A stretch of 64,000 nucleotides of DNA, taken from UHGV virus genome UHGV-0060833; one strand, written 5' to 3'. Shown one piece after another: positions 1-64,000 of the stretch. Position 1 is the stretch's first letter. Every line of letters begins with the position of its first letter. The translations under genes and the position numbers were made by a program. The notes under the pieces are model-generated. The model searched no databases. It had not been told where the DNA came from and saw only the letters and a program-made list of their open reading frames with translations. Source of the DNA: a virus.

Positions 1-773
1 CCGATTGTTTTAAGCTGTTCTATCGCTTTCTTAATGATACGGTTTTGCTCGCCAACAGCTGACTGCAAAGCCAGGCGCTCACGGATTCGCGCGAACGATA
101 GCGGCAACGGGTTCTGCGGAAGGCTTTCGATGAAAGTGTAAATGGCTTGTGCAGCTTCTTTCTTCGGAAGGGCACGCAAGGCGTGGTGTTGCAACAGAAC
201 GCGATAATCAAGCTGGAACAGCTCCCAGAGCTTCGAATCGGCCTCCAGCTCTATCAGATCAAGGTCAGCATCAAAACGCCCGACCTTCAGCAGACCAGTC
301 TGATAGCCGCCTTTAGCATCTTTTCCGCGCTTAAAAGCGATACCCTTGTTACGCAAGCGTCCAAGTGATTCATGAATGGTTAAACGCAGTTTCGCATCCA
401 GACGTTTTGAGGGGAAACCACAGGCTTTAGCGAACTCCTGAAACGATAACTGGATGGTGTTTGAAGACAAGCCGTATTTGCTGAACGCGTAGATGACACC
501 GATCCACGTTTTGAAATCAGTATCCATATCGAGTCGAGGACCGGTGATTTTAATATCATCGTAACCCTCGGCTTTAGCTATCTCCAGCTGGGAAAACGCT
601 TTGGTGGCATCAATCTCTTTACTTTCTCCTTTGCTCTTTGATGGCTTCGGCACGAATACCCCCAAGCGCATCAACGCTACAGGCTGCACAGTGTTGTTTG
701 AATTAACTGTTAGTTCTTTTGCCTTACTTTCAATGTCTGCGTAAAGAATATCGGAGATAAATGATTGATTCAT
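1..773 (-). CDS. repA: Plasmid replication initiator RepA, C-terminus cut by window edge
   Basis: ATG at 773-771 on minus strand; frame open to position 1; translation MNQSFISDILYADIESKAKELTVNSNN... recognised as P1 RepA; abuts the iteron origin. Absent from ORF track because no stop in window. Confidence 0.85.
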   Translation of the reverse strand, partial: MNQSFISDILYADIESKAKELTVNSNNTVQPVALMRLGVFVPKPSKSKGESKEIDATKAFSQLEIAKAEGYDDIKITGPRLDMDTDFKTWIGVIYAFSKYGLSSNTIQLSFQEFAKACGFPSKRLDAKLRLTIHESLGRLRNKGIAFKRGKDAKGGYQTGLLKVGRFDADLDLIELEADSKLWELFQLDYRVLLQHHALRALPKKEAAQAIYTFIESLPQNPLPLSFARIRERLALQSAVGEQNRIIKKAIEQLKTI

Positions 774-786
774 ATTACTTTTTCCG

Positions 787-1052
787 AATTATGTGGATAG
801 TTTTTATAAGTGGTGATAACTACCCAGGCTTTCCCGTCAGCACACATCCTATATCCCGCCAGCACACATTAGCAACCCGTCAGCACACATTTTTATCCCT
901 CCAGCACACATCGTTTTCCCTCCAGCACACATCGCGATACACTTCTAAGCCAGACGTGGCGCGGCCTGCAACGATCAGGGATCTATATGGATCTAATTGG
1001 GATCTGTATGGACCTAATTATTGGATCTACCCAGTGGATAATGTGGATAAGT
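787..1052. other. Plasmid origin oriR: DnaA boxes, five iterons, GATC heptamer cluster
   Basis: TGTGGATAG at 792-800 and tandem TGGATAA boxes ~1034-1051; five ~19-bp repeats with CAGCACACA core (831-932); five GATC sites in AT-rich spacer 973-1027. Confidence 0.8.
831..932 (+). repeat. Five direct iterons (incC-type RepA binding sites)
   Basis: Five spaced copies of ...CCGTCAGCACACAT... read directly; the 97-aa ORF 761..1054 is an artefact of translating these repeats. Confidence 0.85.
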
Positions 1053-1059
1053 GAAAAAC

Positions 1060-1082
1060 CGGCCAACATAGCCGGTTGGAAG
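1060..1082 (-). terminator. Hairpin with T-run on minus strand, downstream of the minus-strand operon ending at 1091
   Basis: AACCGGC-CAACATA-GCCGGTT stem-loop preceded by AAAAA on plus strand (U-run for minus transcript). Confidence 0.5.
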
Positions 1083-1090
1083 GAAGGGTA

Positions 1091-1483
1091 TTATTCTACG
1101 CTTTCGATAAGAAGACCATGTTCATAACATTTAAGCTCATCGCCTTCGTACAGGAATTGGTATCCAATACCACCATTTTCATGGACATTAGGGAATAACT
1201 CATAACTCACTGAAGAGCAAATCACACCAATGCAGCGATCAACGCCTTCTCGTCCTTCAGTGCTGAAAAAATCCTCTTCGGTAAGAACATGAGTACATTG
1301 CTCATCAGCATAGGTCGGAAATACATGCTCGATGCAATCCGGGTGTTTTAAACCAAGCTGATCGGCAAGCTCGAAAGCATGACGGTATTGTTCAGATCCT
1401 GGCTTGCCAACAGTGATGTGCTCAATTTTGTAGATTGAAGTCGCTTTGTTGATAGTTTGCTTTACTGTTACTTTATCAGACAT
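1091..1483 (-). CDS. Hypothetical protein (position of P1 upfA)
   Basis: 130-aa ORF, first gene of a co-oriented minus-strand block next to oriR; no recognisable motif. Confidence 0.55.
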   Translation of the reverse strand: MSDKVTVKQTINKATSIYKIEHITVGKPGSEQYRHAFELADQLGLKHPDCIEHVFPTYADEQCTHVLTEEDFFSTEGREGVDRCIGVICSSVSYELFPNVHENGGIGYQFLYEGDELKCYEHGLLIESVE

Positions 1484-1494
1484 AAAAATCCCTT

Positions 1495-7489: not shown

Positions 7490-7565
7490 GATGGTGTAGC
7501 TCAGCGTTTAGAGCGGTTGACTATTAATCAACGGGTCGATGGTTCAAATCCATCCACCATCGCCA
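7490..7565 (+). tRNA. tRNA with anticodon loop CUAUUAA (anticodon AUU, nominally Asn)
   Basis: Folded by eye: acceptor GATGGTG/CACCATC, T-loop TTCAAAT, 5-bp anticodon stem GTTGA/TCAAC, encoded CCA. A at position 34 is atypical. Confidence 0.8.
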
Positions 7566-7567: not shown

Positions 7568-7643
7568 GCCGGTTTAGCTCAGTTGGTAGAGCGCCTGCCT
7601 TGTAAGCAGGATGTCAGCGGTTCGAGTCCGTTAATCGGCACCA
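7568..7643 (+). tRNA. tRNA-Thr (anticodon UGU)
   Basis: Acceptor GCCGGTT/AATCGGC with one G-U, D-loop AGTTGGTAG, anticodon loop CTTGTAA, T-loop TTCGAGT, encoded CCA; 2 nt after the preceding tRNA. Confidence 0.9.
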
Positions 7644-8800: not shown

Positions 8801-8964
8801 TGGTTATAAAAGCACGTCTAATTCTGGCTTTGGTTTTTCTCGTGCTATCTGTGCTGGTGGATTTCACCAGCACAATCCTGTCGGTTTTATCCGACGGGGC
8901 GTTGGTAGCAGTAGCTGTAACATTGGTATGGCCGATATTTAAACCAGCCTCGAAGGATCAGTGA
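8800..8964 (+). CDS. Small hydrophobic membrane peptide (54 aa)
   Basis: ATG overlaps upstream stop (TGATG); MVIKARLILALVFLVLSVLVDFTSTILSVLSDGALVAVAVTLVWPIF...; below ORF-track size cutoff. Confidence 0.4.
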   Translation: MVIKARLILALVFLVLSVLVDFTSTILSVLSDGALVAVAVTLVWPIFKPASKDQ

Positions 8965-22452: not shown

Positions 22453-22700
22453 TGATTTTTAAAACAGAGAAAGTGAAAATAAAAACATGCCGCAAGGCGC
22501 GGCATGTATCCAATCAATCACTGGAGCTGAAAATATGAACACGGCATTCAAAATCATTATGGCCACGATCTATTTCTGGCTGTTCTCTATCACTTTTGGC
22601 GGCATCGTCGCGCATGGGTAAGGGGAGTATATTAGCCATTTGGAACCCCACGATCTCTTGCGGGTTTAATAAAGAACCCGCAAGAAAAACACGAATTGGG

Positions 22701-25938: not shown

Positions 25939-27143
<1,205 letters not shown>

Positions 27144-38273: not shown

Positions 38274-38462
38274 TAAATATATTATTTTTAATCTGAAATA
38301 ATTGACAACTGACAAGTGACTTCAGTCAGAATCATCACATGCCCGGTACGGATGGATCCCTTTTCAAATATTCCATGGACGGCACAGTCTGAGTACCGGG
38401 CGCTACCTTCAGTTGTATTGCTAAGCCGCCGCTGGTGGCTTTTCTTTTTTATAAGGGGCGCT

Positions 38463-39104: not shown

Positions 39105-39194
39105 TTAATTACGTCAGTAGCCAATAGAGATTTTTGTTGTGGAACAAAAATATATATTTTACAATCTAGTAACTTTGGGTGGGGGATTATTACA

Positions 39195-40744: not shown

Positions 40745-40802
40745 AAATTAACACCCACTTAAGATGTCTAAACCAGCCCGGTATTAACCGGGCTAGACAA
40801 AC

Positions 40803-41051
40803 TTAATCAGCATTCAGGAGCAATGCATTATCTATGATGATTTGCTCCCATTCTTCGAATGCCCGGTCGCGGACGCCCTGGGGAACGCTGTTAGTTTTGA
40901 AATCGACGACCGTACGCCATTTCCCGTCCGGACGGTACATGCGCAGAGCTTTACTTCCCCCCTCCCTGCGCACCTCAACGTTATGCTTATCAGCAAACTC
41001 TTGTAATGCTCGTAGCGTCCCATGCTTTACTGTGTAGTATCGCTTTTTCAA
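40803..41051 (-). CDS. lxc: Small protein (P1 lxc position)
   Basis: 82-aa ORF, last gene of the darB operon orientation; name by position and size. Confidence 0.5.
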   Translation of the reverse strand: MKKRYYTVKHGTLRALQEFADKHNVEVRREGGSKALRMYRPDGKWRTVVDFKTNSVPQGVRDRAFEEWEQIIIDNALLLNAD

Positions 41052-41488
41052 GTTTTCTCTCCAGCCTGTGCTAAGGCTTCAACTTCCAAATCGTAAGACT
41101 CAAACTCATAGTCCTGGTCGTCAACCTCTTCAGGCACTGGCAGTAAATGCCAGGCTGAGTATATCTGACCATTATCAAAACGCTCCTGGCTGTAGAGCGT
41201 CGCGGCTATGAGCGTCAGCGCCGGGCGGTCATAACGGTAAATTTTGCGAACGTCACGGTCAACGAGACGACCGAAATTACCATAACCGCGCTCCAGTAAT
41301 AATTTTTTAATTTCCGGCCAGTATGGACCATAGCTGCGGTACAGACGGGGATTTTTCAGTAATCGCCCGCGTAGCCCTGACAGGAAGAAATCAACGTATT
41401 CGTCTTCTGTCTTTCCTAACAACGCTGTACGGAGTACCGCCTCAAGATATGTTTTATTCGGTTTTATTGTATCAGATAGTGTGGCCAT
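41048..41488 (-). CDS. ulx: Protein downstream of darB (P1 ulx position)
   Basis: 146-aa ORF overlapping lxc start by 4 nt; name by position. Confidence 0.5.
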   Translation of the reverse strand: MATLSDTIKPNKTYLEAVLRTALLGKTEDEYVDFFLSGLRGRLLKNPRLYRSYGPYWPEIKKLLLERGYGNFGRLVDRDVRKIYRYDRPALTLIAATLYSQERFDNGQIYSAWHLLPVPEEVDDQDYEFESYDLEVEALAQAGEKT

Positions 41489-41521
41489 ATTATGCGACGC
41501 CCGGCGAACCGGGCGCTCCTG

Positions 41522-48289: not shown

Positions 48290-48356
48290 TGGTAATCCTT
48301 AACAAGTGACTAGTGTTAAATTTCCGTTCAAACACGATGCGAATTATTCTAATTAA

Positions 48357-51087
<2,731 letters not shown>

Positions 51088-51098
51088 CCACCAAAAAT

Positions 51099-51120
51099 AA
51101 CCCCGGCGGCTGCCGGGGTT
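51099..51120. terminator. Bidirectional terminator between pro and the lyz operon
   Basis: AACCCCGGC-GGCT-GCCGGGGTT hairpin with A/T runs on both sides. Confidence 0.6.
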
Positions 51121-51131
51121 ATCGTTAACTA

Positions 51132-51386
51132 TTATCGCTTTCGCCTGCGTGCCATATATTTGCGCACCGCGCGGCGTGGACAATCTGAAGCGGTTTCTTT
51201 CTGCTGCATCAATCTCGCAGCCATGCTCAAAAATGTCAGGCACAGCCGAAGCCCGGCATACAATAGCGGTTCCAGTGGCCACGTTTCATTAAGCACATAT
51301 ACCGCCATGAAAATCGAGTCGAAAACTATCGCTGCCAGCGATAACTTCATTGTCGAAAGTCTGCGGAGCTGCCGGAGTTTATTCAT
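51132..51386 (-). CDS. Small two-TM membrane protein downstream of lyz (holin/antiholin-like topology)
   Basis: 84 aa; two hydrophobic segments (LSLAAIVFDSIFMAVYVL, LLYAGLRLCLTFLSMAA) and strongly basic C-terminus; start overlaps lyz stop. Confidence 0.45.
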   Translation of the reverse strand: MNKLRQLRRLSTMKLSLAAIVFDSIFMAVYVLNETWPLEPLLYAGLRLCLTFLSMAARLMQQKETASDCPRRAVRKYMARRRKR

Positions 51387-51936
51387 TGACCAGTCCCGTC
51401 AGGCAAAGCTGGCGTTCTTTTTCACGGCGAATCTTTAAACCTCGCAGGGGCACGCCGTTACTGTTCACAAAATCAGGGAGATGGTTACACATATTCACCC
51501 ATTCCCCTTTCTGCGCCCACTTGTGGATGGACGTTTCGACTCGCATGCCTCGCGCTTTGCTGTAGTAGGTCCGTAAGCTATTGCATCCCATATTGAATGC
51601 CGCGCTTGTCATTGCACTAAAGGCATTATCGGGCATGTCTTTGCCCCGGAAGTGCTGATTAATACAGCGTTCAGCGATCAGGATATTCTTTTCCCAATCA
51701 GCGGCGATTTGCTGGTCGGTTTTTCGCACACCCGGCGTTACCCCGTGTGTATTACCGATCCCGTCAGTCCATACCCCCGCCGGGCACATGTATGGATCAC
51801 GTCGGCAACCTTCAGCGTTACCAATCAGCTCAAGCCCCGCCTGGTTGGTTCGCACATTGCCATTACCCATTACGATGGTAATCATCACCGCGATAGCGCA
51901 AATTGCACCGCCTCCTGCGGCTGTTTTTCCCTTCAT
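51379..51936 (-). CDS. lyz: SAR endolysin (T4-lysozyme-like muramidase with N-terminal signal-anchor-release domain)
   Basis: 185 aa; SAR segment AAGGGAICAIAVMITIVMGNG; catalytic block IGNAEGCRRDPYMCPAGVWTDGIGNTHG. Confidence 0.85.
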   Translation of the reverse strand: MKGKTAAGGGAICAIAVMITIVMGNGNVRTNQAGLELIGNAEGCRRDPYMCPAGVWTDGIGNTHGVTPGVRKTDQQIAADWEKNILIAERCINQHFRGKDMPDNAFSAMTSAAFNMGCNSLRTYYSKARGMRVETSIHKWAQKGEWVNMCNHLPDFVNSNGVPLRGLKIRREKERQLCLTGLVNE

Positions 51937-52068
51937 AAAGACCTCATAAGCGAATTTTTACGCTCCAGGACAAACACCCATTCACAGCCAATACCGACTG
52001 ACTCGATCCCTTTAGAAGGCACAGGATAATGCAAATCACTTGTTAGCTACGTTTCAAAGATATACATT

Positions 52069-52085
52069 ATTGCTCTAATCATTTT
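52069..52085 (+). promoter_or_regulatory. C1 operator-like site upstream of ssb
   Basis: ATTGCTCTAATCATTTT, 20 bp before ssb start. Confidence 0.65.
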
Positions 52086-52104
52086 ATTTTATTAGGTAAG
52101 ATAA

Positions 52105-52593
52105 GTGGCACAACGCGGTGTAAACAAAGTCATCCTGATTGGTACCCTGGGGCAAGACCCGGAGATCAGGTATATACCAAATGGCGGAGCGGTCGGAAGA
52201 CTAAGCATCGCAACAAATGAATCATGGCGCGACAAGCAAACGGGCCAACAGAAAGAGCAGACAGAATGGCATAGAGTCGTTTTGTTCGGGAAACTTGCTG
52301 AAATTGCGAGTGAGTATTTACGAAAAGGTTCTCAGGTCTACATCGAAGGGAAACTTAAAACCCGTAAGTGGACAGATGACGCCGGTGTAGAACGTTACAC
52401 GACGGAAATTATCGTCAGCCAGGGCGGCACCATGCAAATGATCGGCGCTCGCCGTGACGATTCACAGTCCTCAAATGGCTGGGGGCAATCGAACCAACCT
52501 CAAAACCACCAGCAATACAGTGGTGGCGGTAAACCTCAGAGCAACGCCAATAACGAACCTCCAATGGACTTTGACGACGATATTCCGTTTTAG
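52105..52593 (+). CDS. ssb: Single-stranded DNA-binding protein
   Basis: 162 aa; OB-fold N-terminus ([43 protein letters not shown]), Gly/Gln-rich linker, C-terminal DFDDDIPF. Confidence 0.95.
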
Positions 52594-52795
52594 AGTTTAT
52601 GAGTAAAAAACGACTGAAAGAAAAGCGGTGGTCAAGACGCCGACAAAAGCACGAACTCGCAAAAAAACGCCAAAGTTGGCAATGGCACGCGCTTTTCACG
52701 AAAAGAACACCCCGAGATATTGCTTTCGCTGGTGGGAAAACATTCCTGACCCACCTGAAGGCGCAATACATCAGTTTTTAAGCAGAGAAAAGACT

Positions 52796-53590
52796 ATGAC
52801 AGCACAAAATACTAAAACAATTCAATACCGCCTGCGTAATGGCCAGAGTGTCGAAGTGACCATCAATAATGATGGTGTACCTGGCGAAAAGGTTTCGATC
52901 TCTGATCTGGCTATCGAAAAAACCATCATGTGCCACCTTGGCTTTACTGAAGAAGTGAGCAAAAAGCATGGTGTAGCTATCTGGCGCACAATGGATACTG
53001 GCATGCGCAGATTCATTACTGCTCGTACCCCTGGTATGACCATGATGGACCTCATACAGATTGCGCCGCTGTTTGAGTGTGAACCTTTGGATGTATTCAG
53101 CAATCCAGCTATCTGCCAGCAGTTATATGGTGAGATGAAACTCGCGGTTACCCCCATTGTGCTGCATGAAGGATCGCTTGCTGGCGTATGGAAAGTAGAG
53201 CGAATTTCAAGCTACATGCCATTCCACATCCATGTCAACGGCGTAATCGCAGGTGAAAATCAACCTGTTTCAGTTACAAAGTCAGACCTCAATCGCGCAA
53301 TTCTTGAAGCAAGTTGTCGAGTTATCGGCCTGGGCAAACAGTCTTATGTTTCCTTCCCGGCTGGTCCTGAAGGCCCGGCAGAAATTCTGATTATGGATGC
53401 TGATCTGCTCTGGCAAATACAGTTTCTGATTGGCAAAAGCATCATCCGCGCTGAAGAACTCGATCAGTACATTACCTGCACGATGACGGATGAAGTCAAA
53501 AGTGTGGCTATAGCCAATGCCCGGAACCTGTGTCGTGCTGCATTAACAGAACCGCAAGAAAACATTCCAGAAGAAACAGAAAGTGACTAA
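52796..53590 (+). CDS. Hypothetical protein downstream of ssb
   Basis: 264 aa from MTAQNTKTIQYRL; an upstream GTG/ATG start inside ORF 52628..53590 is possible. Confidence 0.5.
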   Translation: MTAQNTKTIQYRLRNGQSVEVTINNDGVPGEKVSISDLAIEKTIMCHLGFTEEVSKKHGVAIWRTMDTGMRRFITARTPGMTMMDLIQIAPLFECEPLDVFSNPAICQQLYGEMKLAVTPIVLHEGSLAGVWKVERISSYMPFHIHVNGVIAGENQPVSVTKSDLNRAILEASCRVIGLGKQSYVSFPAGPEGPAEILIMDADLLWQIQFLIGKSIIRAEELDQYITCTMTDEVKSVAIANARNLCRAALTEPQENIPEETESD

Positions 53591-53596
53591 TAAAAA

Positions 53597-53614
53597 CCCC
53601 GTCAGTTGGCGGGG
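53597..53614 (-). terminator. Minus-oriented terminator immediately upstream of the HipA-like gene
   Basis: CCCCGTC-AGTT-GGCGGGG hairpin preceded on plus strand by TAATAAAAA. Confidence 0.5.
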
Positions 53615-53787
53615 AACTCCACGTCAAATGGCCAATTGTTATGTCAGCTAGCAGTTAAAGCGCCTAGTCATCATCTTTTAAAGAAGTCTTTTTAACTTAC
53701 CTAAATTAGTGACACCTCCCGTTTTGCTTGCTATTGTACGCATTCATGAATCTATTCATTAATCTATTCACAATAGTAATTAAAACT

Positions 53788-55092
53788 ATGGCTATACATG
53801 CAACAACAATCCGTAATTTGCTCAATCAAGGTCCTATGACACCAAGACAATTGGTTGAAAGACTAAGTGTTAGCCAACCAACGATATCTAGAGCATTAAG
53901 AGATCTTGGTGATGAAATCGTTAGGATCGGAAATGGAAGATCTATTCAATATGCTTTACGAGACTCTTTTAGAGGATTCGAATCAGTCCCCATTTATCGT
54001 ATAACTGAAGAGGGGTGTATTTGCGTTCTTGGTACTCTCATTCCGGTGAGGCCAGAAGGCTATGTTATGGTTGAGGAAGGGAAAAATAACAGGCATAGCG
54101 ATGGGTTACCTTGGTGGTTATTTGATATGCGTCCACAAGGCTTCCTTGGAAGAGCATATGCATCAGCATATGCTCTTGAACTTAACCTTCCCTCAAATCC
54201 AGAGCAATGGTCAGATACTGACGTGATCAAAGCCTTACTTAAGCATGGGCATGATGTTGTTGGTAATTTGTTAATTGGAGAGCAAGCACGCACGCATTTT
54301 TTAGAGATGCAGCCTCCTGTTCCTGTTAATCGTGAAAGTGAATATCCTGTATTAGCTTTAGCTGCTGGTGAAGGTGATGTGCCCGGTTCATCTGCTGGAG
54401 GTGAACAACCCAAATTTTGTACTTTCACAGAGCGTGGACATGTATTAGTGAAATTCTCTGCGCCTAACGACACCCCTATAAGTGAGCGTTGGAGAGATCT
54501 CTTGTTTGCTGAACATCTCGCATTAAAAGTTCTGGGGGTAGAAACAGAAGTTTTTGATTATAACGGTCAGAGATTCTTGGAAATTCCCCGATTTGATCGT
54601 GTTGGTCAACTAGGTCGGGTAGGTGTATTCTCACTTCGTGCACTTGATGCAGAATTTGTTGGGAATGCAAGAGCAACATGGCCCTTGCTGGTTAAAGAGT
54701 TGGTAAAAAATAAGTGCGTCCATCCTGATGCGATTATTATAGCAACAAGGCTATGGTCTTTTGGTTTGCTAATAGGCAATACCGATATGCATAATGGTAA
54801 CCTATCGTTTATTAGTAGCCACGGACGCCCATATCATATTGCTCCAGCCTATGACATGTTACCTATGGGTTTTGCTCCACGCTCTGGGGGAGCAATATCT
54901 AATGAGCTTAGAAAAACAGCACTACCAGACTTTGTAAGTCGAAAAATATGGGATGAATCTCTTGAATTGGCTGAAAAATTTTATGCATTGGCCTGTGAGT
55001 CCGACAAATTCTCAGCTAACTTTACTCCATGTTTAGAAGCGCTACGCATCCACCTAGATGATTGTAAGATACGCATAGCCCGCCTGGCATAA
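53788..55092 (+). CDS. HipA-like Ser/Thr kinase with N-terminal winged-HTH (YjjJ/HipH-like)
   Basis: HTH MTPRQLVERLSVSQPTISRALRDL; HipA-like GDVPGSSAGGEQPKF and catalytic-loop-like IGNTDMHNGNLSF; by-eye GC lower than flanks. Start may be 53746 or 53728. Confidence 0.75.
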   Translation: MAIHATTIRNLLNQGPMTPRQLVERLSVSQPTISRALRDLGDEIVRIGNGRSIQYALRDSFRGFESVPIYRITEEGCICVLGTLIPVRPEGYVMVEEGKNNRHSDGLPWWLFDMRPQGFLGRAYASAYALELNLPSNPEQWSDTDVIKALLKHGHDVVGNLLIGEQARTHFLEMQPPVPVNRESEYPVLALAAGEGDVPGSSAGGEQPKFCTFTERGHVLVKFSAPNDTPISERWRDLLFAEHLALKVLGVETEVFDYNGQRFLEIPRFDRVGQLGRVGVFSLRALDAEFVGNARATWPLLVKELVKNKCVHPDAIIIATRLWSFGLLIGNTDMHNGNLSFISSHGRPYHIAPAYDMLPMGFAPRSGGAISNELRKTALPDFVSRKIWDESLELAEKFYALACESDKFSANFTPCLEALRIHLDDCKIRIARLA

Positions 55093-55098
55093 ACAACA

Positions 55099-55120
55099 AA
55101 TCCCGCCGATTGGCGGGATT
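55099..55120. terminator. Bidirectional terminator between HipA-like gene and the end of the darA operon
   Basis: AATCCCGCC-GATT-GGCGGGATT perfect 9-bp stem with T-rich flanks on both strands. Confidence 0.7.
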
Positions 55121-55123
55121 TCT

Positions 55124-55432
55124 TCAATATACGATCTGGTCTGCATGATCACCAAAATCATCGTCGTCGTCCTCATCGCCACCATCTACTGCTGGCCAAT
55201 CAACAAACCAGCCAGCGTAAAGATGCAGCGTTCGGAGAACATCACTTGCGGGAGCATCAAGGGTGTTAACGAATCCCATATAGCTATTGGGATTTGCCCC
55301 AGCTATGGCTTCAGCGATCATGTCCTCGGTAATGTCACCGGAGATAATGCTTAAACGCCCGGAAACTTCTTCATTATCATCAAATTCGATAATGGCATCT
55401 CCGCCTAATGGCGCTGCGATTTTAATCTGCAT
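55124..55432 (-). CDS. Small acidic protein, last gene of the darA operon
   Basis: 102 aa with poly-Asp tail; start overlaps ddrB stop. Confidence 0.5.
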   Translation of the reverse strand: MQIKIAAPLGGDAIIEFDDNEEVSGRLSIISGDITEDMIAEAIAGANPNSYMGFVNTLDAPASDVLRTLHLYAGWFVDWPAVDGGDEDDDDDFGDHADQIVY

Positions 55433-58409
55433 TATTTAGCTCCTTTGCCACACCTAATAACAGTTCCAGCAATCCGTCACCATTCATCAGTGATGCGGCA
55501 GCGGCCTCTTTGTCATGATACAACTGAAGAGCCATAGAGAATACTTCCGTTGCTGACGTTTTGGAAATAGTCGGTGATTTCTGCCGAATTTTCCCGGTGT
55601 TACTTACTGAGGCTGGCGGGTATACCTTCGCCATATAAATATTACTCAATCGAGATCTGAAGCACCATTCAGGCTTGCCACGCCCACCGATATTAACGAA
55701 AGATGGCTTATCCCCTTCAACATTGGCCTTCAGGAATGACCGGGCTTTCTCTAACAAACCAGGGTTACTGTACTCAAGATGATGACCCAGCTCGTGCCAC
55801 AGTGCACTTGCATTTTCATCGTTCAAATTGACAGCAACAACACCATTAAGATTTGCATATGCCCTTCCCTGGTGGTGAACCACCTTTGATAAGGTCGATA
55901 TTTTCCCGCCGGTCAGGCGATAAATATCAGCAAGTTCCTTGCGCAGGTCTATCCCACCACTCTGTCCAGCGCGGGCTTCTTCCACTTCTTCCGTGATAAA
56001 AGAGTCGGCCCACTCAAGAGCTTTTTCTTCAGATACGGATGAGTTGGCTATCGCACTATTCATGGCAGATAACACTTTCTCGTGGACCGAACCCATACTT
56101 CGCTGATTCATTTGCCAGCGTGTCTGCGGGTTATATGAGAATCGCTTAAGTAGTTGGTCAAGATGCTCAAGTTCTTCTTCGCTGACATACTTTTTAGCCT
56201 CACCAATAATGTCGGGGAGAATATTGCCGTTAGGATTAAACGCTCGCGAAAGGAAGAGTTTCAGCGCCCCCATGCCCTCCGATGCTTCAATATCACCAAT
56301 AACACGGTTAACAATGGCCGCACTCTTCGGATTAGCATCCGCCAACGCTCTGGCTACGATTTGCAGGGACGATACGACCTCACGCTGCATATCCGTCCTG
56401 ATCTCATCAATAAACTCTGGCGTTATGCCGTGCTCTTTAAGGATATCCCTGCCTTCCGCCGTTACCCCATCGATATCACCGACATGTTTATTAACCTGAC
56501 TTTGCAATGCCTTAAATGCCTTCAGAATTCCACGGGCATCATCAGCTTTACTAACGGCCTTCCTGAATGCTGGCAAGAAGTCAGAGTTAACCTCATTTTG
56601 TTGATCGGCCCACTGAATGGAGGCTTCTTTCATCTCGTCCAGAGTCAGATCACCCAACGCGGTATGGTCTGTGAATATGAGCGACAACCTCTGAACCATT
56701 TCTGCCAATGGTGATGCCGAATGCGCCGCGCTAAGGAATGCTTTCACCCTGGTTGGGCGAATGGAAAACCAGTCAATAGCTGGTGGCATATCTCCGTTTT
56801 TTATCGCCTGCGCTATCTCGTCAAAGCCATCGCGCCCAAGGGAGGATGCGTGATTTAACAAGCCGCGAAGTAACGAATTGCTGATACCGAATAATCGGCA
56901 CCATTTTTTCACGTCGGCAACAGGCATTCGAACAAAATGCGCAAGCACTTGTACAAGCTGTTCATCCTGGGGATCTGTGCGGGAAAGCAGCCTGATCAGA
57001 TGAATAATGTCTTTGATGCCGGATGCCCGATGTAATAGCAAACTGGTATACGGAGCAACACCGTTGTAACTACCGCCGGAAACGGACTCGAAAAGACCGC
57101 CGGATATCCCTTGCATGCCTTCGTTTTCCAGTTCCTGAGACACCTGGCGAAGGATATCCTGTAACGACACATCACCACCGCCAAACATATCCCCCAGCGC
57201 CTGGCCCTGGTGCTGTAACTCATCATTGATACGTTGAGCCATCAATTTAAAGGCGGTGGCCATACGCTTTGCGCTACGGTTATTCGCGACGATGAACAAC
57301 GCGAGCGCTTTCACTTCCGGGGCTGTTTCGCTGAACATATCCCCCTGAGCAATAACATCGATAATATGTTGGCCTGACTCCTTCGATTGCCTTACCAGGT
57401 CTACCGCATCTTTCAATGCCGCCAGCGCCTTTTTATCGAGACTATCCGCTGTCTCAATACCATCAACAATAGTTGTCACAGCCTGCTTGTGCGCTTCTCC
57501 TGATAAAGCCTGCATCTGGACAAAATCATTGGCTGCCGCATTAAGCGCCGTCAGAACATTACGCATATCCGGATCAGGTTCTTCTGCAACCATCCTTACC
57601 AGGCGCGCATCCTTATATGCCTTGGCAAAGATCGCGTTTTGTATACGGTCTACAAGTTGCCGTGTTGGTCGCCCATCTTCCGTTACAAGGCCAGCAGCCT
57701 GTGTGGCACCAACTTGCGTCATGAATCCGCGAATAAACGCGTCATTACTGCGGCTAAGCAGATCTCCGCTTTCTGATGGGTTAAACAGCGCCATCATCGC
57801 CGGAGTTATGCTGTCAGCATCAACAAAAGCCTTTTCACTGGCTGCCATTTCCTGAAGATCAGAAATATTTGAGTCCTTGGCAAACTGAACGCGGTCAACC
57901 TTAGTTAACCGGCGGCGCACCAGTACCGGAGCCGCCATTGATTCAACCTTTTCAGGTCGTATGCCGAATTCGGTCGCATGATCAATCAGGTACTCACGAT
58001 ACCGATCCGCATTGCCGTCCTGATAGGCTTTGATGATCCCCATGGTCCGTCCATTACCTGACTCAACGGCATTGTCCTCACCAATTATCGGCGCGCCATG
58101 GCTGGATAAACCGGAATCGGTAAGCTGGGCAGGACGCAAATCCTTGGATATCTGGTTGACCTGAAGAAGACTGGATGCGCGGGTCCGGTCGCGCGGCTGA
58201 AGTTCCTGGGGATAGTCAGGGTTAATTTTCCCGTCCAGAGTATTGGATACCAAAAGAGCTGAGGCATCGACGATATCAAACGCTGTTTTTACCTCGTCTC
58301 CCTTCGCTGTCACCACATACGAAACCCGCCCGTAATTGGGCAGGTTTTTTAGCAGCTCGATCAGCGTTTCTATGCTGGTGGCCATTACCACCTGATCGCT
58401 TAAGCTCAT
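55422..58409 (-). CDS. ddrB: Large darA-operon protein (P1 ddrB position)
   Basis: 995-aa ORF following ddrA/darA on the minus strand; name by operon position. Confidence 0.6.
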   Translation of the reverse strand: MSLSDQVVMATSIETLIELLKNLPNYGRVSYVVTAKGDEVKTAFDIVDASALLVSNTLDGKINPDYPQELQPRDRTRASSLLQVNQISKDLRPAQLTDSGLSSHGAPIIGEDNAVESGNGRTMGIIKAYQDGNADRYREYLIDHATEFGIRPEKVESMAAPVLVRRRLTKVDRVQFAKDSNISDLQEMAASEKAFVDADSITPAMMALFNPSESGDLLSRSNDAFIRGFMTQVGATQAAGLVTEDGRPTRQLVDRIQNAIFAKAYKDARLVRMVAEEPDPDMRNVLTALNAAANDFVQMQALSGEAHKQAVTTIVDGIETADSLDKKALAALKDAVDLVRQSKESGQHIIDVIAQGDMFSETAPEVKALALFIVANNRSAKRMATAFKLMAQRINDELQHQGQALGDMFGGGDVSLQDILRQVSQELENEGMQGISGGLFESVSGGSYNGVAPYTSLLLHRASGIKDIIHLIRLLSRTDPQDEQLVQVLAHFVRMPVADVKKWCRLFGISNSLLRGLLNHASSLGRDGFDEIAQAIKNGDMPPAIDWFSIRPTRVKAFLSAAHSASPLAEMVQRLSLIFTDHTALGDLTLDEMKEASIQWADQQNEVNSDFLPAFRKAVSKADDARGILKAFKALQSQVNKHVGDIDGVTAEGRDILKEHGITPEFIDEIRTDMQREVVSSLQIVARALADANPKSAAIVNRVIGDIEASEGMGALKLFLSRAFNPNGNILPDIIGEAKKYVSEEELEHLDQLLKRFSYNPQTRWQMNQRSMGSVHEKVLSAMNSAIANSSVSEEKALEWADSFITEEVEEARAGQSGGIDLRKELADIYRLTGGKISTLSKVVHHQGRAYANLNGVVAVNLNDENASALWHELGHHLEYSNPGLLEKARSFLKANVEGDKPSFVNIGGRGKPEWCFRSRLSNIYMAKVYPPASVSNTGKIRQKSPTISKTSATEVFSMALQLYHDKEAAAASLMNGDGLLELLLGVAKELNNAD

Positions 58410-58421
58410 CCCTGTTACGCC

Positions 58422-58787
58422 TTACTCTGCCTCTTTAATGTTGGCGGCTATCCATGCCGCCGTGTGCTGTTTAACCTGGTCCAGATCGATGTATGTGCCA
58501 ACATATTGACTCAAGTCCTGCAACGTACCGATAAATGCATCGGTGCTCTGATCGACGAATTTATCAGCCAGGAAATCAGCAACCAGTTTTGGCACACCAT
58601 CATGTACCGAAGGTTGTTTTTCCTCGCCACTACTGCCGCCGGACACACCGTACCCCATCTGTTGCATGATCTGGTCAATTTCATCGCTGATATCCAGCAA
58701 CTCCATGCCACTCGCGGTAGCCGCTTTGGACATCAGAGCATCCAACTTATCGCTGAGATCCATTAACTCAATAGCTGATAGTGTCAT
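58422..58787 (-). CDS. ddrA: Small acidic darA-operon protein (P1 ddrA position)
   Basis: 121-aa ORF overlapping darA stop. Confidence 0.55.
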   Translation of the reverse strand: MTLSAIELMDLSDKLDALMSKAATASGMELLDISDEIDQIMQQMGYGVSGGSSGEEKQPSVHDGVPKLVADFLADKFVDQSTDAFIGTLQDLSQYVGTYIDLDQVKQHTAAWIAANIKEAE

Positions 58788-60703
58788 GCCGCTACCCCCG
58801 CTTTCTGGATTGCTACCAACAGATCAGCCAGGTGGCGAGCTGCGCCGTTAACCAGCTCTTCGTTTTCCTCAAAACGTCCGGCAGCCTGAAGGGCTGCAAT
58901 CGCTTCCCGGACATTGCCCCGGGCGTTACGGATCTCCGCCATGTCAGTGCTTTGTATATCCATCACGTTATTGAGATATTCAATGGCTTTATTAGCCTCT
59001 GCATCTGCTTCGCTAACCGTTTCATCAGGCTGTGCCGGGGCCGGTTCTGGCTGAGTAATCTCACCGACTTCGGCCTGCAATGCATTGATCATGCTCTGCA
59101 CCATTTTCTCGGTGCCAGCGCCCCCAGGAAACGCAATATTGGGGAAAGTTTTTTGAAACTGAGTTTTCAGCATTACGCGGAACTCGTCTGGTGAGCTGGT
59201 GGCCAGCTCCAGAGCTTTTTGTGCATATTTGCCAAACGGACCATTAGTAAGTGTCTTCGCCAGGAAGTCGAAAGAATCCTCGCGAGGCAATAACTTCAGG
59301 TCGTACTCACTCATTTGCTGATCAGAAAGCGGGGTATCGTAAGTAGCAATGCCGTAGCGTGCATATTCATAATACGGGTCACCTTCATCAGGGCGCGGCA
59401 GAATTGCTTTGTTACCTTCAGGTATTGCGCCAGGGGCCGCCGGACGCATTTGCAGGGCATATCGATATGCACCTACAGAGACTTCTGGTTCAGGCGAAGA
59501 GCTACCGGTATCCTCCGCTGGTTCAGGTTCGACGTTTTCCGGTTTATGTTCTTCTGGTTGGACCAGGTATTCCGATACATTACCCGCTTTATAGGCTTTA
59601 AACAGCTTGCCGATCGCATCTGCCATGTCCACACCCTGTATGGATTTAGCCTTGATCATGTATACGCTGCCATCCGGATCGGTTAACTGGATATACCCTT
59701 CGCCGCCCCCAATGAATTGCTTCATTGATGCTCCATTACTGAGCGTCACTTCCCCGTTCATATGCATACGATTTTTGATACTGGCAAGGCGATCCGTCAG
59801 CGCGCGCGAGTGCCCACCAGTCATCCCCGCTGGATCAATGGTATCGCGCCCACCTGTGCGATTGAGCTGATCAATCTCCGTCTGCAAACGCTCATTCTCT
59901 TCATAAAGAGAATCCGCTTCCGATGCAACAGCGTTAATTTTCTGCTCCAGATCTACCTTCTGCCCTTCTACCGCTGCCACCTGATCCGCGAGGTCGCTCA
60001 TGGCATCCTCTTTCTGGTCACTGTCAGCCTGTAGTTGGGTTATTTCATCAACCAGGGCTTTTTTCTTCTTCTGCGCACGCTGGAATTTTGCCGAGTTTTT
60101 CTCTGCAAGGTTGGCAAGTTTCATGGTGACCTGCGCCAGCGTCATATCACGTCCACTCATCGGAGCAACGGTGTGAGTAACGTCTTTTTTATTCAGTAAG
60201 AACTGGAAAGCAACCAGCGTATCGCTATTGGTGATCCGGTTTTCCGCTGTCGGGCTATGAAACAGAATGCTGATAGTCTGACCATCACTGAGCGGAATAA
60301 TGGCTGGCAGGACCGGCAGCCCGTTAACGTTACGTGCCCGGCCAATTTCAGCACCGCCGATCGCGCGCGCGCCGCTCTGGGCCACCTCCCCCGTTTTATC
60401 ACTCCCCGCAGAGATTCCGGTACCATTCAGCTTCTGGTTCAATGCCCGGACAAATGCCTGCATGGTCCGGTGTAACTGCAAACGAGTAGAACTAATCGCC
60501 TCCAGTAAATCCGTAGCACACCAGTGGATCGGCGTGTCATAGAAGAACGTAGCCTCGATTTCCTCCAGGGTGTTGGATTCCGTCATCAGATAGCGGTCCT
60601 CACCGGCCATTAATGCGCGATATTCATCATCAGTCACTGGCGGGGGAAGCACGTCAAGCCCAGGCTTGATCGTCACCCCTTTATTGATATTTAACTGTTC
60701 CAT
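58784..60703 (-). CDS. darA: DarA antirestriction / capsid-internal protein precursor
   Basis: 639 aa, matching recalled DarA size; shares a lysine-rich block with the upstream hdf-like gene; embedded in the lydA-lydB operon. Confidence 0.7.
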   Translation of the reverse strand: MEQLNINKGVTIKPGLDVLPPPVTDDEYRALMAGEDRYLMTESNTLEEIEATFFYDTPIHWCATDLLEAISSTRLQLHRTMQAFVRALNQKLNGTGISAGSDKTGEVAQSGARAIGGAEIGRARNVNGLPVLPAIIPLSDGQTISILFHSPTAENRITNSDTLVAFQFLLNKKDVTHTVAPMSGRDMTLAQVTMKLANLAEKNSAKFQRAQKKKKALVDEITQLQADSDQKEDAMSDLADQVAAVEGQKVDLEQKINAVASEADSLYEENERLQTEIDQLNRTGGRDTIDPAGMTGGHSRALTDRLASIKNRMHMNGEVTLSNGASMKQFIGGGEGYIQLTDPDGSVYMIKAKSIQGVDMADAIGKLFKAYKAGNVSEYLVQPEEHKPENVEPEPAEDTGSSSPEPEVSVGAYRYALQMRPAAPGAIPEGNKAILPRPDEGDPYYEYARYGIATYDTPLSDQQMSEYDLKLLPREDSFDFLAKTLTNGPFGKYAQKALELATSSPDEFRVMLKTQFQKTFPNIAFPGGAGTEKMVQSMINALQAEVGEITQPEPAPAQPDETVSEADAEANKAIEYLNNVMDIQSTDMAEIRNARGNVREAIAALQAAGRFEENEELVNGAARHLADLLVAIQKAGVAA

Positions 60704-60704
60704 G

Positions 60705-61316
60705 TTAATTTCCTGCTTTCAGTTGCTTAAGACGACGTTTGAGTTCGCCATTCCGTGCCTTTTCGTTATTGAGTCGGCCCGTCTCCTTATCCAGCTTCGC
60801 CCGCAAATCAGTGATCTGCTGTTGATTGAAAGACACCGAATTCTGCGCGGACTTATAAGCGGCAACCACCTGAGCATTCCGCTGTTTTGCTTCTTGCAGG
60901 CGCTGAAAGTTGGATTTAACTGCCGGTTTCTTGTCTACCGGATTGGCAACACGCTTCGCTTTGGCGATCAGTGATTTCTGGAATTTTGCGGAGTTTTTGC
61001 GGGCCGCCTGTCCCATGACGGTACCAAGCGTCTTGATATCCGGCGACTGAGCGTTAGGAATAGCTTTTCCATTCAGTTTCACAGACGATATATCGCCAGT
61101 ATCGTTTACCTGTATGGCAAGAATTTGTCCGTCGTTAAGAACCAGCTTTGCGGTTTTAACTTTAACGCCATCTTTCGTTGTTGCGCGGTTGCTGGAGTCA
61201 ACCTCAATTACCGTAACACCGGTTTTATTGATCGCCGCGATAAGGGATTTCAGCCCCTTTTCATTAACCTGGTCAAAATCGACCGTTGCATACTTATTTT
61301 TCGTCATCTGACACAT
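60705..61316 (-). CDS. hdf: Homolog of DarA fragment
   Basis: 203 aa; ARKNSAKFQKSLIAKAKR resembles DarA AEKNSAKFQRAQKKKKAL; directly upstream of darA. Confidence 0.6.
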   Translation of the reverse strand: MCQMTKNKYATVDFDQVNEKGLKSLIAAINKTGVTVIEVDSSNRATTKDGVKVKTAKLVLNDGQILAIQVNDTGDISSVKLNGKAIPNAQSPDIKTLGTVMGQAARKNSAKFQKSLIAKAKRVANPVDKKPAVKSNFQRLQEAKQRNAQVVAAYKSAQNSVSFNQQQITDLRAKLDKETGRLNNEKARNGELKRRLKQLKAGN

Positions 61317-61737
61317 CCTGTGCGAGATTTATTACGTAACTTCTGCGGATTTGCTGAGTAACAGGGAAAATCCGATACAACGGGTTAATGAACGAGTCGC
61401 CATGCGTAACCATGATGTTGAAATGCCACAGTCGCTCTCCTTTACCCATATATTCAGTGGGTATGTACAACCATTCACTGTTTTCGCCCTGTTCAGCCGA
61501 CGTCAGACAACGTTGTTCACCTTCAATCACTGTCGTCGGCTTCTGAACATCGCGGATCCAATATCTGACCGTTGCGCCGCGCAAAAACGGGAATTTAGAC
61601 CGGTACTTGAACGGCACCCGGATGAAACCCGGTTTAATTTCCACATCACCAAGTTCTAAATGCGTGATGTCCTTGCGTTTTAGCAAATAGCGATCGGCTA
61701 AGGCTAACGCAAGAACGCATACACCCCAGCCAATCAT
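61294..61737 (-). CDS. lydB: Putative antiholin (P1 lydB position)
   Basis: 147-aa ORF overlapping the holin-like gene stop by 4 nt. Confidence 0.55.
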   Translation of the reverse strand: MIGWGVCVLALALADRYLLKRKDITHLELGDVEIKPGFIRVPFKYRSKFPFLRGATVRYWIRDVQKPTTVIEGEQRCLTSAEQGENSEWLYIPTEYMGKGERLWHFNIMVTHGDSFINPLYRIFPVTQQIRRSYVINLAQDVSDDEK

Positions 61738-62063
61738 TTCCCGCCTCCCTTTTTCACCAAACTTGTAAGAACATTCAGAATGCTATCGATATTCACTCGT
61801 TTCATCCCTGAAATCACCTCATGACCGTTATTGCTGGCTATCGTTACCATTAAGTACGTAATTGATAACTCCCAGCCCTCGTGTTGCCCCAATAGGTACG
61901 CCACCGCGCCAGCTGTCACTGCAACAAAGATCTCCGTAACCAATCCCAACAAATTGCCAGACTGGCGACCGTCTCGGACATCCATCAGGAACGTGCCTAT
62001 CCCACCAATTACTGAAAGCAGGAGCGCAATAGCAACTGGAGCTAATTCCTGTGTGTCAAGCAC
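61734..62063 (-). CDS. lydA: Holin-like membrane protein
   Basis: 109 aa; hydrophobic segments VAIALLLSVIGGIGTFLM and IFVAVTAGAVAYLLG; first gene of the operon. Confidence 0.6.
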   Translation of the reverse strand: MLDTQELAPVAIALLLSVIGGIGTFLMDVRDGRQSGNLLGLVTEIFVAVTAGAVAYLLGQHEGWELSITYLMVTIASNNGHEVISGMKRVNIDSILNVLTSLVKKGGGK

Positions 62064-62130
62064 AAGTTCCCTCCTACGTTGTCAGGAGGTAATGGTATGC
62101 AAAGTAACTTCTCAACCGGTCATTTGTTGC

Positions 62131-62412
62131 TTAAGAGGCATTTCTATTGAGGTACGAATCGATAATCCTTTGTAACTTTTCAAGAATGAGCCTGTTATTG
62201 ATGCTGCAAATAATAGTCACGCAATTCTGAAGACTTTCATCCATACCCTTATATTCCGCGAAATACATGCCTATAAAGCCTGCAAGTACGGCAGCAATAC
62301 ACTCGGCCATCAATTGCCTGCATGACGCTTCGTAACGTTTTTCACGAACCCCATTCAGAAACGAATGCACCCCGCCAAGGATGGAGAGGAGCATTATTGT
62401 GAAATCACACAT
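62131..62412 (-). CDS. Small holin-like membrane protein
   Basis: 93 aa; hydrophobic segments TIMLLSILGGVHSF and AAVLAGFIGMYF. Confidence 0.45.
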   Translation of the reverse strand: MCDFTIMLLSILGGVHSFLNGVREKRYEASCRQLMAECIAAVLAGFIGMYFAEYKGMDESLQNCVTIICSINNRLILEKLQRIIDSYLNRNAS

Positions 62413-62539
62413 AACTATTTCCTTAATAGTGAATTAAATATCATTGGGAAACGGTATGTACTTTGTGATTTCCACACATACTGGTTTTTGTTAATTAAAA
62501 TCCGCAGCTTGCTATAAATAACGATAGTGAGCAGAAAAT

Positions 62540-62850
62540 ATGCTAATAGGCTATGTACGCGTATCAACAAATGAACAAAACACTGCTTTACAACGAAACG
62601 CTCTTGAAAGCGCAGGATGTGAGCTAATTTTTGAGGACAAGGCGAGTGGAAAAAAGGCTGAACGACCAGAGTGAAAAAGGCTTTTGATAGGTAAACTCTG
62701 GTCGTATGAAAGTTAAATTTGCGTGGGTGCAGCATGCGCTCACTCTTGAGGCATGAACGGTAATCATCTGATAACTTGTAGCTCGATTATCCGGACGCAC
62801 TGGAACCAGTCGATGCTTCCAGCGATCCAGATATTTCATTAAATGGACTA
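62540..62850 (+). pseudogene. cin: Decayed cin-type serine DNA invertase
   Basis: [44 protein letters not shown] then TGA; shifted frames still read TLVV.KLNLRGCSMRSLL (cf. TLVVWKLDRLGRSMKHLISL); 3' part missing, U gene ends at 62848. Confidence 0.8.
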
Positions 62851-63282
62851 CGCCTCCGGGAACGCTGGCCAATTGACATCTGGTGCAGTGCTGGTATCCG
62901 TTGCGGTCACCGCATCGATATAATCCAGCACAGCGTTAAGACGGGTGGTTTCAGCCTGCGTAAGATTCCGCCCGGCCTGTAATTTCAGTTGAATAAGACT
63001 AATGGAAGCCATTGCGGTATCAATCAGCGACTGTTTTTTCTGTTCAGCGTCAGCTACCAGTTCATCATGAGAACGTTCCGGAGTGGGTGGCGCAGTAAAT
63101 CCCCCGTCTGAATACCCCCAGCCGATTCCGGGCTGCTCACTGATATCAGAAATATTAATGAGCTGCTGATTATCCGGCACTGTGAATTCAGCCTCGCCAT
63201 CCCAGACAATGACATTCACAACCATCCCATTTTCAATAACTGCATATGACGTATTCATTATGCAAACTCCTCGATAATACAA
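62848..63282 (-). CDS. Tail fibre assembly chaperone (U/Tfa-like)
   Basis: 144 aa; overlaps the 3' end of the fibre gene, as in Mu/P1 S-U pairs. Confidence 0.7.
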   Translation of the reverse strand: MYYRGVCIMNTSYAVIENGMVVNVIVWDGEAEFTVPDNQQLINISDISEQPGIGWGYSDGGFTAPPTPERSHDELVADAEQKKQSLIDTAMASISLIQLKLQAGRNLTQAETTRLNAVLDYIDAVTATDTSTAPDVNWPAFPEA

Positions 63283-64000
63283 ATCCCTGAAGCGCCTTTC
63301 CCGCCCGTCATACTGGTTCCGCTATAACCGGCATCGTATGCGCCACCTCCGCCTGAACCATATGCTTTACCGATAACACCACCGCCAGCGCCTGCACGTC
63401 CACCGCCGCCCCAGTACGATGTTCCGCCTTCACCGCTGACGCCGATATTTCCGGACTGACCGTCGCCTCCATGTCCACCAGTGATGCGGATATCGCCAGT
63501 ACTCGGCACACCGCCGTTACCACCGTTTGTGTTTGTGACTCCTGACTTTCCGCCGCCTGAGCCACCAGGAGCAATTAACGATGCGAATACACTATTCCCG
63601 CCACTGGTGCCGTTCGTCGCACTAACACCACCGGCCCCACCTGCGCCGATAGTGACTGGATAACTATTCTGTGTCGGGGTCATTATTGAAATTATTGTCC
63701 CACCGGCCCCACCGCCAGCACCGAAAAACGTCTCGCTGCTCGAGTATGCCTTGCAGCCGCCCCCTCCGCCACCGCCGCCCGTTATTGTGACCCTGATCCG
63801 TTTTGTTCCTGGGGTTGGGGTATACGTACCTGATGAAGTGAAAACCTGGGTATTCACCAAACGCCCAACATATCCGCTTGAATCGCTCAGGCCAAGGTTA
63901 GCAGCAGTTAAAGTAATATTTGCAGAACCATCAAACTTAACACCGTTGATAGTGCGTGCAGTCTGTAGTTTCGTTGCGGTTGCGGCATTACCGGTAGTGC
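63258..64000 (-). CDS. Tail fibre protein, C-terminal variable part (5' end beyond window)
   Basis: Frame open to the window edge (…ATKLQTARTINGVKFDGSANITLTAANLGLSDSSGYVGRLVNTQVF…) followed by Gly-rich repeats; ORF-track start at 63860 is an internal TTG. Confidence 0.75.
   Translation of the reverse strand, partial: TTGNAATATKLQTARTINGVKFDGSANITLTAANLGLSDSSGYVGRLVNTQVFTSSGTYTPTPGTKRIRVTITGGGGGGGGCKAYSSSETFFGAGGGAGGTIISIMTPTQNSYPVTIGAGGAGGVSATNGTSGGNSVFASLIAPGGSGGGKSGVTNTNGGNGGVPSTGDIRITGGHGGDGQSGNIGVSGEGGTSYWGGGGRAGAGGGVIGKAYGSGGGGAYDAGYSGTSMTGGKGASGICIIEEFA

Follow-up and report, generated by a model that had tools for sequence, protein, structure and literature searches.

The 64,000-nucleotide stretch of DNA analysed here (the window, positions 1 to 64,000 of virus genome UHGV-0060833) is a P1-like phage-plasmid (Punavirus, IncY type), with a P1-type replicon, cre-loxP and c1/coi. 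Its genes for replication, immunity, cre-lox recombination, packaging, addiction, anti-restriction, lysis and morphogenesis are canonical P1, intact and about 98% identical. Among them lie four segments without a P1 counterpart, called A to D below. It is nearly certain that the window represents about two thirds of an Escherichia coli P1-type phage-plasmid, the same element as plasmid p2017-03-3CC_3 (NZ_AP027786.1) minus an ISVsa5 insertion; this degree of confidence applies jointly to the whole of the explanation given here. Segment B, which pairs a YaaC-family gene with an NDT/DNPH1-fold gene, is the only lead in the window that is not already explained.

The whole window was compared by BLASTn with the annotated P1 record (AF234172 / NC_005856, 94.8 kb). 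The matches covered 53,331 of the 64,000 bp (83%) in five collinear blocks of 96.4-98.3% identity (Table 1), and when the three thirds of the window were run by megablast against 50,697 phage records, P1 was at or near the top. An initial annotation, made from the sequence alone, had assigned the genes from repA/oriR to the darA operon the order and orientation of P1; BLASTn collinearity, tblastn, an exact loxP and the tRNA genes all bear this out. The genes for packaging, head, tail and lysis are in P1 order (pacA, pacB, prt, pro, 5-26, pmgL-S, lyz, lydA-E and the darA operon), and blocks 2 and 3 meet at the origin of the P1 record, which is situated in loxP.

To examine gene integrity, 78 P1 proteins were searched for in the window by tblastn, with reciprocal checks of pacB, c1 and coi. 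The 60-odd backbone genes are all full-length and free of frameshifts, mostly with 93-100% amino acid identity to P1; the lowest values are those of tciC (74%) and upfB (90%). Cre, C1 and Coi are 98.8, 99.3 and 100% identical to their P1 counterparts. Residues 1-257 of the 286 in RepA are 100% identical, the window beginning inside repA with incA and parAB beyond its edge, and the oriR region falls within the block of 98.2% identity. In that block 32 of 32 P1 proteins were recovered full-length at 74-100% identity, and five single-base indels separate it from P1. Outside the four gaps, the window departs from P1 only by indels of one base and by a handful of short stretches in which identity drops below 93%. 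The lowest identity, 84.5%, is found in a patch in upfB (2201-2700), and in 200-bp windows identity falls to 91.5% in a tciB-tciC patch (8901-9100). These two patches indicate small recombination tracts, in or beside the published variable regions 6 and 7.

The nearest relative is p2017-03-3CC_3, from human faeces in Viet Nam. Over positions 20869-64000 of the window (43 kb compared) the two are 100.0% and 99.997% identical, and the plasmid shares all four cassettes with the window, as well as its rare tRNA-Asn variant. The sole structural difference is in pacA, which is split in the plasmid by ISVsa5, an IS4-family insertion sequence (IS), and intact in the window. The window retains the empty insertion site, the target being duplicated in NZ_AP027786.1; because this site is uninterrupted, the window is the pre-insertion form or a sibling of the plasmid. 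The match to NZ_AP027786.1 came in two pieces, and two hidden indels were considered as the cause; direct alignment showed ISVsa5 only, and the second piece proved to be an internal tail-fibre repeat. Related plasmids are numerous: 114 in PLSDB cover at least 80% of positions 22001-43000 by megablast.

The four segments account for the rest of the window. BLASTn matched none of their 10,669 bp to the 94.8 kb of P1, the P1 proteins of the displaced segments had no tblastn match anywhere in the window, and the cassette proteins YjjJ and Tfa had none in P1. The GC contents of A (44.1%), B (35.0%) and C (42.0%) are below that of the backbone, 49.2 +/- 2.4%. The initial annotation had held that its cargo blocks were absent from P1, and on alignment none of them proved to be present and syntenic there. 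It had counted at least three replacements; there are four, the one not listed comprising the tail-fibre tip, the gene for its assembly and the invertible C segment. The two-gene cassette that it saw in the res/mod slot is confirmed, but its remark that IS1 is missing there was misplaced, since the IS1 of P1 lies in the isaA-isaB slot and the IS in P1 mod is IS5. The type I restriction-modification (R-M) system that it noted before phd is of type IC and takes the place of nine genes, pmgT to humD, rather than of hot-lxr-humD only. Its HipA-like kinase between ssb and ddrB is YjjJ/HipH, sited more precisely between isaA and hxr, with isaA kept.

Variation at these sites is familiar. Eight variable regions have been published for P1-like plasmids, and the four sites are regions 1, 2, 3 and 8 (PMC9603915). 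Regions of difference, a truncated cin and a type I R-M system in place of pmg genes have also been described in P1-like plasmids (PMC6906374). The four-site pattern is thus already published, and the window adds no new principle to it.

In cassette B the stop codon of the YaaC-family gene and the start codon of the NDT-fold gene share 1 nt. The first protein matches PF14175 over profile positions 18-307 of 307 with 156.4 bits against a cut-off of 27, and the identical protein in RefSeq is named 'YaaC family protein'. It has the four-helix HEPN fold. Its conserved residues include H288 and R289 (at least 90%), R295 and Y296 in a helix at 279-296, and also H156-R157; no canonical HEPN R-x4-6-H motif is evident among them, and RNase activity cannot be assumed. 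The second protein scores 22.1 bits against PF05014, below the gathering cut-off of 28.8, and many of its homologues have a precomputed match to this family. Its AlphaFold2 model has a pLDDT of 96.4, and a Foldseek search with the model retrieved human DNPH1, the CMP N-glycosidase BcmB and NDTs at E values of about 1e-5 and target-normalised TM values of 0.7-0.78. Glutamate E88, in the motif G-L-G-I-E-L (G-x-G-I-E-L), is invariant across 47 homologues. This is consistent with its being the catalytic nucleophile of the NDT/DNPH1 superfamily, as judged by resemblance of the motif and not by superposition.

Neither protein matched any family in PADLOC-DB 2.0 at E <= 0.01, or any NCBIfam model. 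A literature search for YaaC with HEPN or phage, for 'YaaC-like' and 'YaaC family', and for PF14175 retrieved no relevant paper, and YaaC is not named in a survey of HEPN domains (PMC3710099). The GC content of the cassette is far lower than in any 1.5-kb stretch of the backbone, for which the minimum is 43.7%.

The pair is found far beyond P1-like elements. In each of eight distant genomes sampled (Bradyrhizobium, a Chryseobacterium-type contig, a Rhodospirillaceae-type contig, a metagenome contig, Kangiella, Nitrospina, Myxococcus and Aeromonas), a YaaC homologue (41-51% identity) is followed directly by an NDT-fold homologue (50-57%), with the 1-nt overlap in four. The phyla are Proteobacteria, Bacteroidota, Nitrospinota and Myxococcota. 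The neighbours of the pair elsewhere include Gabija (GajA, E 1.8e-172; GajB, E 2.4e-125) and Pycsar (PycC, E 3.6e-142, with PycTM) accompanied by PDC-S46, and also an AbiTii gene, a HicAB pair and integrase genes. Closer to the window, copies of cassette B with at least 96% identity are carried by 77 PLSDB plasmids and by 106 of 5,426 complete E. coli genomes.

Cassette B lies in the mat-lxc interval, which is home to other systems in sister elements. In P1 it is the EcoP1I type III R-M system (res-mod, P1 3544-9749), and in phage SJ46 it is CapRel^SJ46, an experimentally validated anti-phage toxSAS. A RelA/SpoT-family gene, not identified as CapRel, occupies the slot in vB_EcoM-673R5, and a ThsA/PDC-S25-like SIR2 protein occupies it in plasmid CP122597. 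The sister-element loci are at 18902-19450 (L010), 27962-29083 (L011) and 17160-18464 (L012). EcoP1I, CapRel^SJ46 and the SIR2-family proteins are unrelated to those of cassette B, and the interval behaves like a hot spot for the exchange of defence systems.

A role in defence or addiction is proposed for cassette B because the pair is conserved, has defence systems as neighbours and lies in a slot with such occupants, and because the NDT-like effectors of retrons (Ec86/Eco1) defend by depletion of adenine nucleotides (bioRxiv 10.1101/2023.08.16.553469). On this analysis, the chances are about even that the YaaC-NDT operon is a hitherto undescribed module for anti-phage defence or addiction. 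Its NDT-fold protein would then be an N-glycosidase effector that depletes or damages the nucleotide pool, and the YaaC protein could be its sensor, regulator or antitoxin, or a second effector.

Table 1. Positions of P1-related blocks, segments without P1 counterpart and individual features in the window
Feature	Position	Strand	Description
Block 1	1-22625		P1 61859-84482; 98.2% BLASTn identity; repA N-terminal part, oriR, upfA-upfC, uhr, hrdC, dmt, tRNAs, plp, upl, tciABC, ban, dbn, tail/baseplate genes 5-26, pmgL-pmgS, ppp, pap
Block 2	28807-35638		P1 87970-94800; 98.3% BLASTn identity; proteins 96.5-100% identical; phd, doc, pdcA, pdcB, lpa, pacA, pacB, c1, coi, left half of loxP
Block 3	35639-39104		P1 1-3468; 96.4% BLASTn identity; proteins 93-99% identical; cra, cre, c8, ref, mat
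Block 4	40803-53591		P1 9750-22532; 98.0% BLASTn identity; proteins all full-length, 94-100%; lxc, ulx, darB, prt, pro, lydE, lydD, lyz, ssb, isaA
Block 5	55126-62744		P1 24246-31876; 97.9% BLASTn identity; proteins full-length; hxr, ddrB, ddrA, darA, hdf, lydB, lydA, lydC, 5' part of cin
Segment A	22626-28806	-	6,181 bp; type IC hsdM-hsdS-hsdR; replaces nine genes pmgT-humD (3,487 bp)
Segment B	39105-40802	+	1,698 bp; YaaC-family and NDT/DNPH1-fold genes; replaces res-mod
Segment C	53592-55125	+	1,534 bp; helix-turn-helix (HTH)-HipA kinase yjjJ/hipH; replaces IS1 and isaB
Segment D	62745-64000	-	1,256 bp, cut by window end; tail-fibre tip and assembly gene
YaaC-family (HEPN-fold) gene	39195-40235	+	346 amino acids; PF14175, E 1.5e-45
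NDT/DNPH1-fold gene	40235-40744	+	169 amino acids; sub-threshold PF05014
hsdR	22701-25817	-	1,038 amino acids; Pfam HSDR_N, SWI2_SNF2, T1R_D3, EcoR124_C
hsdS	25939-27147	-	402 amino acids; two Methylase_S stretches (Pfam)
TAEL repeats in hsdS	26610-26654		three 12-bp repeats, central region
hsdM	27144-28706	-	520 amino acids; Pfam N6_Mtase, HsdM_N
yjjJ/hipH	53788-55092	+	434 amino acids from RefSeq ATG; between isaA and hxr
Hairpins of cassette C	53594-53613, 55098-55117		20-nt, GC-rich, just inside the junctions
cin pseudogene	62540-62744	+	44 codons, then TGA at codon 45
Tail-fibre assembly gene	62848-63258	-	Pfam Caudo_TAP, E 4.9e-22; ATG overlaps fibre stop codon
Tail-fibre gene, glycine-rich C-terminus	63258-64000	-	Gly_rich_2, E 8e-15; runs off window
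loxP	35622-35655	+	canonical 34-mer, 0 mismatches; 0 chance matches expected
Empty ISVsa5 site in pacA	31662-31671		target duplicated in NZ_AP027786.1
tRNA-Asn	7490-7565	+	ARAGORN, Rfam
tRNA-Thr	7568-7643	+	ARAGORN, Rfam
tRNA-Ile2/Met(CAT)	9075-9150	+	ARAGORN, Rfam

By its predicted proteins cassette A is a complete type IC (EcoR124-family) system, with the gene order hsdM-hsdS-hsdR and three intact open reading frames (ORFs). HsdR matches PF12008 (EcoR124_C) at E 1.5e-71, the cassette matches TIGR00348 and TIGR00497 in NCBIfam, and PADLOC agrees with Pfam. EcoR124II, EcoDXXI and EcoprrI likewise have three TAEL repeats in HsdS, and the number of repeats sets the length of the spacer in the recognition sequence (PMC3874165); the spacer predicted for the window HsdS is probably N7. 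The position of the cassette is not new, because its junctions match both features flagged in the P1 record and an earlier report. In the record, the stretches 84263-84482 and 87969-88647 are noted as matching the flanks of the EcoDXXI and R124/3 hsd loci at 96-98% identity, and their end points coincide with the window junctions at P1 84482 and 87970. Going by its citation in PMC12707154, the paper of Tyndall et al. (1997, Mol Microbiol 23:729) has the P1 DNA flanking hsd as its subject. The same hsd cassette is present between pap and phd in phage vB_EcoM-673R5 (791-6742), where the annotation splits the ORFs of hsdR (HsdR1/HsdR2) and hsdM (two M fragments), a sign either of a decaying R-M system or of frameshift errors in the record. 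The genes pmgT-humD seem to be dispensable for this element, which was deposited as a phage.

The kinase of cassette C has matches to HTH_5 and MarR at residues 24-63 and to HipA_C at 221-383 (Pfam). With the YjjJ equivalog model NF007297 of NCBIfam its score is 531.5 bits, the cut-off being 401, and RefSeq annotates the identical gene as yjjJ. No plausible ORF for a partner or antitoxin was found in the 1,534-bp cassette, so the kinase is monocistronic, the organisation that defines the HipH/YjjJ kinases, clade X of the HipA-homologous kinases (PMC8262856). In P1, IS1 lies between isaA and isaB. The two hairpins of the cassette are 80% identical to each other; they are probably terminators and could mark its recombination ends. 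At 97.5% identity or more, cassette C is present in 26 of the 5,426 complete E. coli genomes, in plasmid copies and at one chromosomal place. A blastn search of these genomes, sensitive to about 65-70% identity, found no DNA similarity between the cassette and chromosomal yjjJ, and kinship to the K-12 gene is therefore visible only at the level of the protein family.

The initial annotation had also called cin decayed, and alignment confirms it. The remnant agrees exactly with P1 over its first ~147 nt, after which the TGA arises from a cluster of changes; deletions of 12 bp and 1 bp follow, and the 3' ~345 nt (two thirds of the gene) are missing together with cixL, P1 homology ending at 62744. 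The RefSeq/PGAP annotation marks the same remnant as an incomplete recombinase. No cix-like crossover site (TAAACCNNGGTTTA, 1 mismatch) was found in the window. The genes of segment D do not resemble the U, U' and Sv tips of P1, and in NZ_AP027786.1 the fibre is a single ORF of 1,474 amino acids. There is a single Sv-tfa set on one strand, which is not the arrangement of a Cin/Gin/Hin invertase switch. Because cin is dead, no cix site is present and the C segment has been replaced, the switching of tail fibres has been lost, with one tip fixed. The fixed tip would set the host range by abolishing such switching. A truncated cin and missing C segments were found in other P1-like plasmids by Venturini et al. 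(PMC6906374).

Besides the three tRNA genes, an Rfam scan of the whole window at gathering thresholds detected nothing. The tRNA-Asn has the anticodon ATT, as against GTT in P1, and a G-to-T change in the conserved GG of the D-loop; it may be a decaying tRNA or may have altered decoding. Among 665 matching PLSDB records, just 2 reach 99% identity over this stretch, so the gene is a variant private to this plasmid lineage. A pair of changes within 76 nt is statistically unremarkable at the backbone divergence of about 1.8%.

The window might come from a decaying, non-inducible remnant of P1 and not from a functional temperate phage, a possibility that is compatible with the explanation preferred here and that we consider unlikely. 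It would fit the dead cin and lost C segment, the absence of the putative morphogenetic genes pmgT, pmgU and pmgV, the odd anticodon of tRNA-Asn and the disruption of pacA in NZ_AP027786.1, and P1 derivatives without lytic functions are known (Venturini et al., PMC6906374). Set against this are the 60-odd full-length backbone genes, with pacA intact in the window. The deposited phage genome vB_EcoM-673R5 likewise carries hsd where P1 has pmgT-humD, which suggests that these genes can be spared, and a fixed tail fibre restricts host range and not viability.

As to the origin of the mosaic, the cassettes would have been swapped between P1-like elements sharing a host, and with other plasmids, through homologous recombination in the conserved genes on either side. 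The contents of slots A, B and C would act as conflict systems that protect the host or stabilise the plasmid: R-M, a putative abortive-infection pair and a kinase toxin. At mat, lxc, isaA and hxr the junctions coincide with the stop codon of the gene, and no IS remnant, transposase, terminal inverted repeat or target duplication was found at any junction. Repeat analysis of the cassette borders detected only the TAEL repeats and the two hairpins around yjjJ. The cassettes also re-assort. CP122597 has the same Hsd proteins (the same WP accessions) with SIR2 in the mat-lxc slot, KX880944 matches the window over A, B and C but not D, and SJ46 combines CapRel in slot B with a humD-type allele in slot A. 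Allelic exchange of cassettes is deduced from these three features: the positions of the junctions, the lack of transposon signatures and the re-assortment.

Acquisition of the cargo by transposition, or by IS-mediated insertion with adjacent deletions, would be in keeping with the lower GC content of A, B and C. Insertion sequences are present in these elements, with IS1 in slot C of P1 and ISVsa5 in pacA of NZ_AP027786.1, and IS-mediated acquisitions have been described in other P1-like plasmids (PMC6906374). This route is nevertheless improbable, given junctions that bear none of the signatures of transposition and that lie exactly where the conserved neighbouring genes reach their stop codons, and given that other plasmids hold alternative cassettes in the same slots with identical flanks. 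An assembly chimera of P1-like and unrelated contigs is very improbable: each cassette is found in the same slot, at 96-100% identity, in tens of independently sequenced complete plasmids, and NZ_AP027786.1 is 100% identical across all four junction pairs. That the window is canonical P1, with four blocks that P1 has but that were wrongly taken as foreign, can practically be dismissed, since only the ~98% identity of the backbone speaks for it and the unmatched 10,669 bp, with no reciprocal matches for the displaced P1 proteins, YjjJ and Tfa, contradict it.

Several considerations weigh against the explanation preferred here. The recombination is deduced from a pattern, and each replacement could have run in either direction relative to P1; the IS1-isaB allele of P1 may itself be the derived state. 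Composition gives no foreign mark for segment D, which at 52.5% GC resembles the backbone. The functions ascribed to the cassettes come from homology. About 31 kb of the element, with sim, immI (c4-ant), repL/oriL, parAB and most tail genes, lie outside the window, which limits any judgement of viability; the lytic replicon, immI and parAB are at about 46-61 kb in P1.

P1-like phage-plasmids, common in E. coli, have variable regions that are published hot spots for cargo, including resistance genes. The practical value of the window is that of a clean example, in which the pap-phd, mat-lxc and isaA-hxr slots all carry known or putative conflict systems. If the YaaC-NDT pair does defend against phage, a widespread system of HEPN-fold and NDT-fold proteins would be added to the defence catalogue, and the mat-lxc slot would be worth searching for others.

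Comparison with known systems places the element as follows. P1 has EcoP1I res-mod, pmgT-humD, IS1-isaB, a functional cin and an invertible C segment, none of which is in the window; in their stead are type IC hsdMSR, the YaaC and NDT-fold genes, yjjJ and a different, fixed tail-fibre tip. The R-M system is close to EcoR124. The window HsdR and HsdM match the EcoR124 chains 2w00_A (2282 bits) and 7bst_D (1154 bits) of the PDB end to end with near-identity, and the N-terminal, central and C-terminal conserved regions of HsdS are identical. Both target-recognition domains of HsdS are unlike those of EcoR124, and the recognition sequence is therefore expected to differ. YjjJ of K-12 has Ser/Thr kinase activity and inhibits growth (PMC9948734, PMC8262856); its gene is chromosomal, whereas the copy in the window is plasmid-borne and divergent, with a function predicted from its protein family. 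The NDT-fold protein of cassette B shares just 14-18% sequence identity with DNPH1. Retrons, whose NDT-like effectors offer a parallel in defence, act with a reverse transcriptase and msDNA; cassette B has neither, and the partner of its NDT-fold protein is a YaaC protein of HEPN fold.

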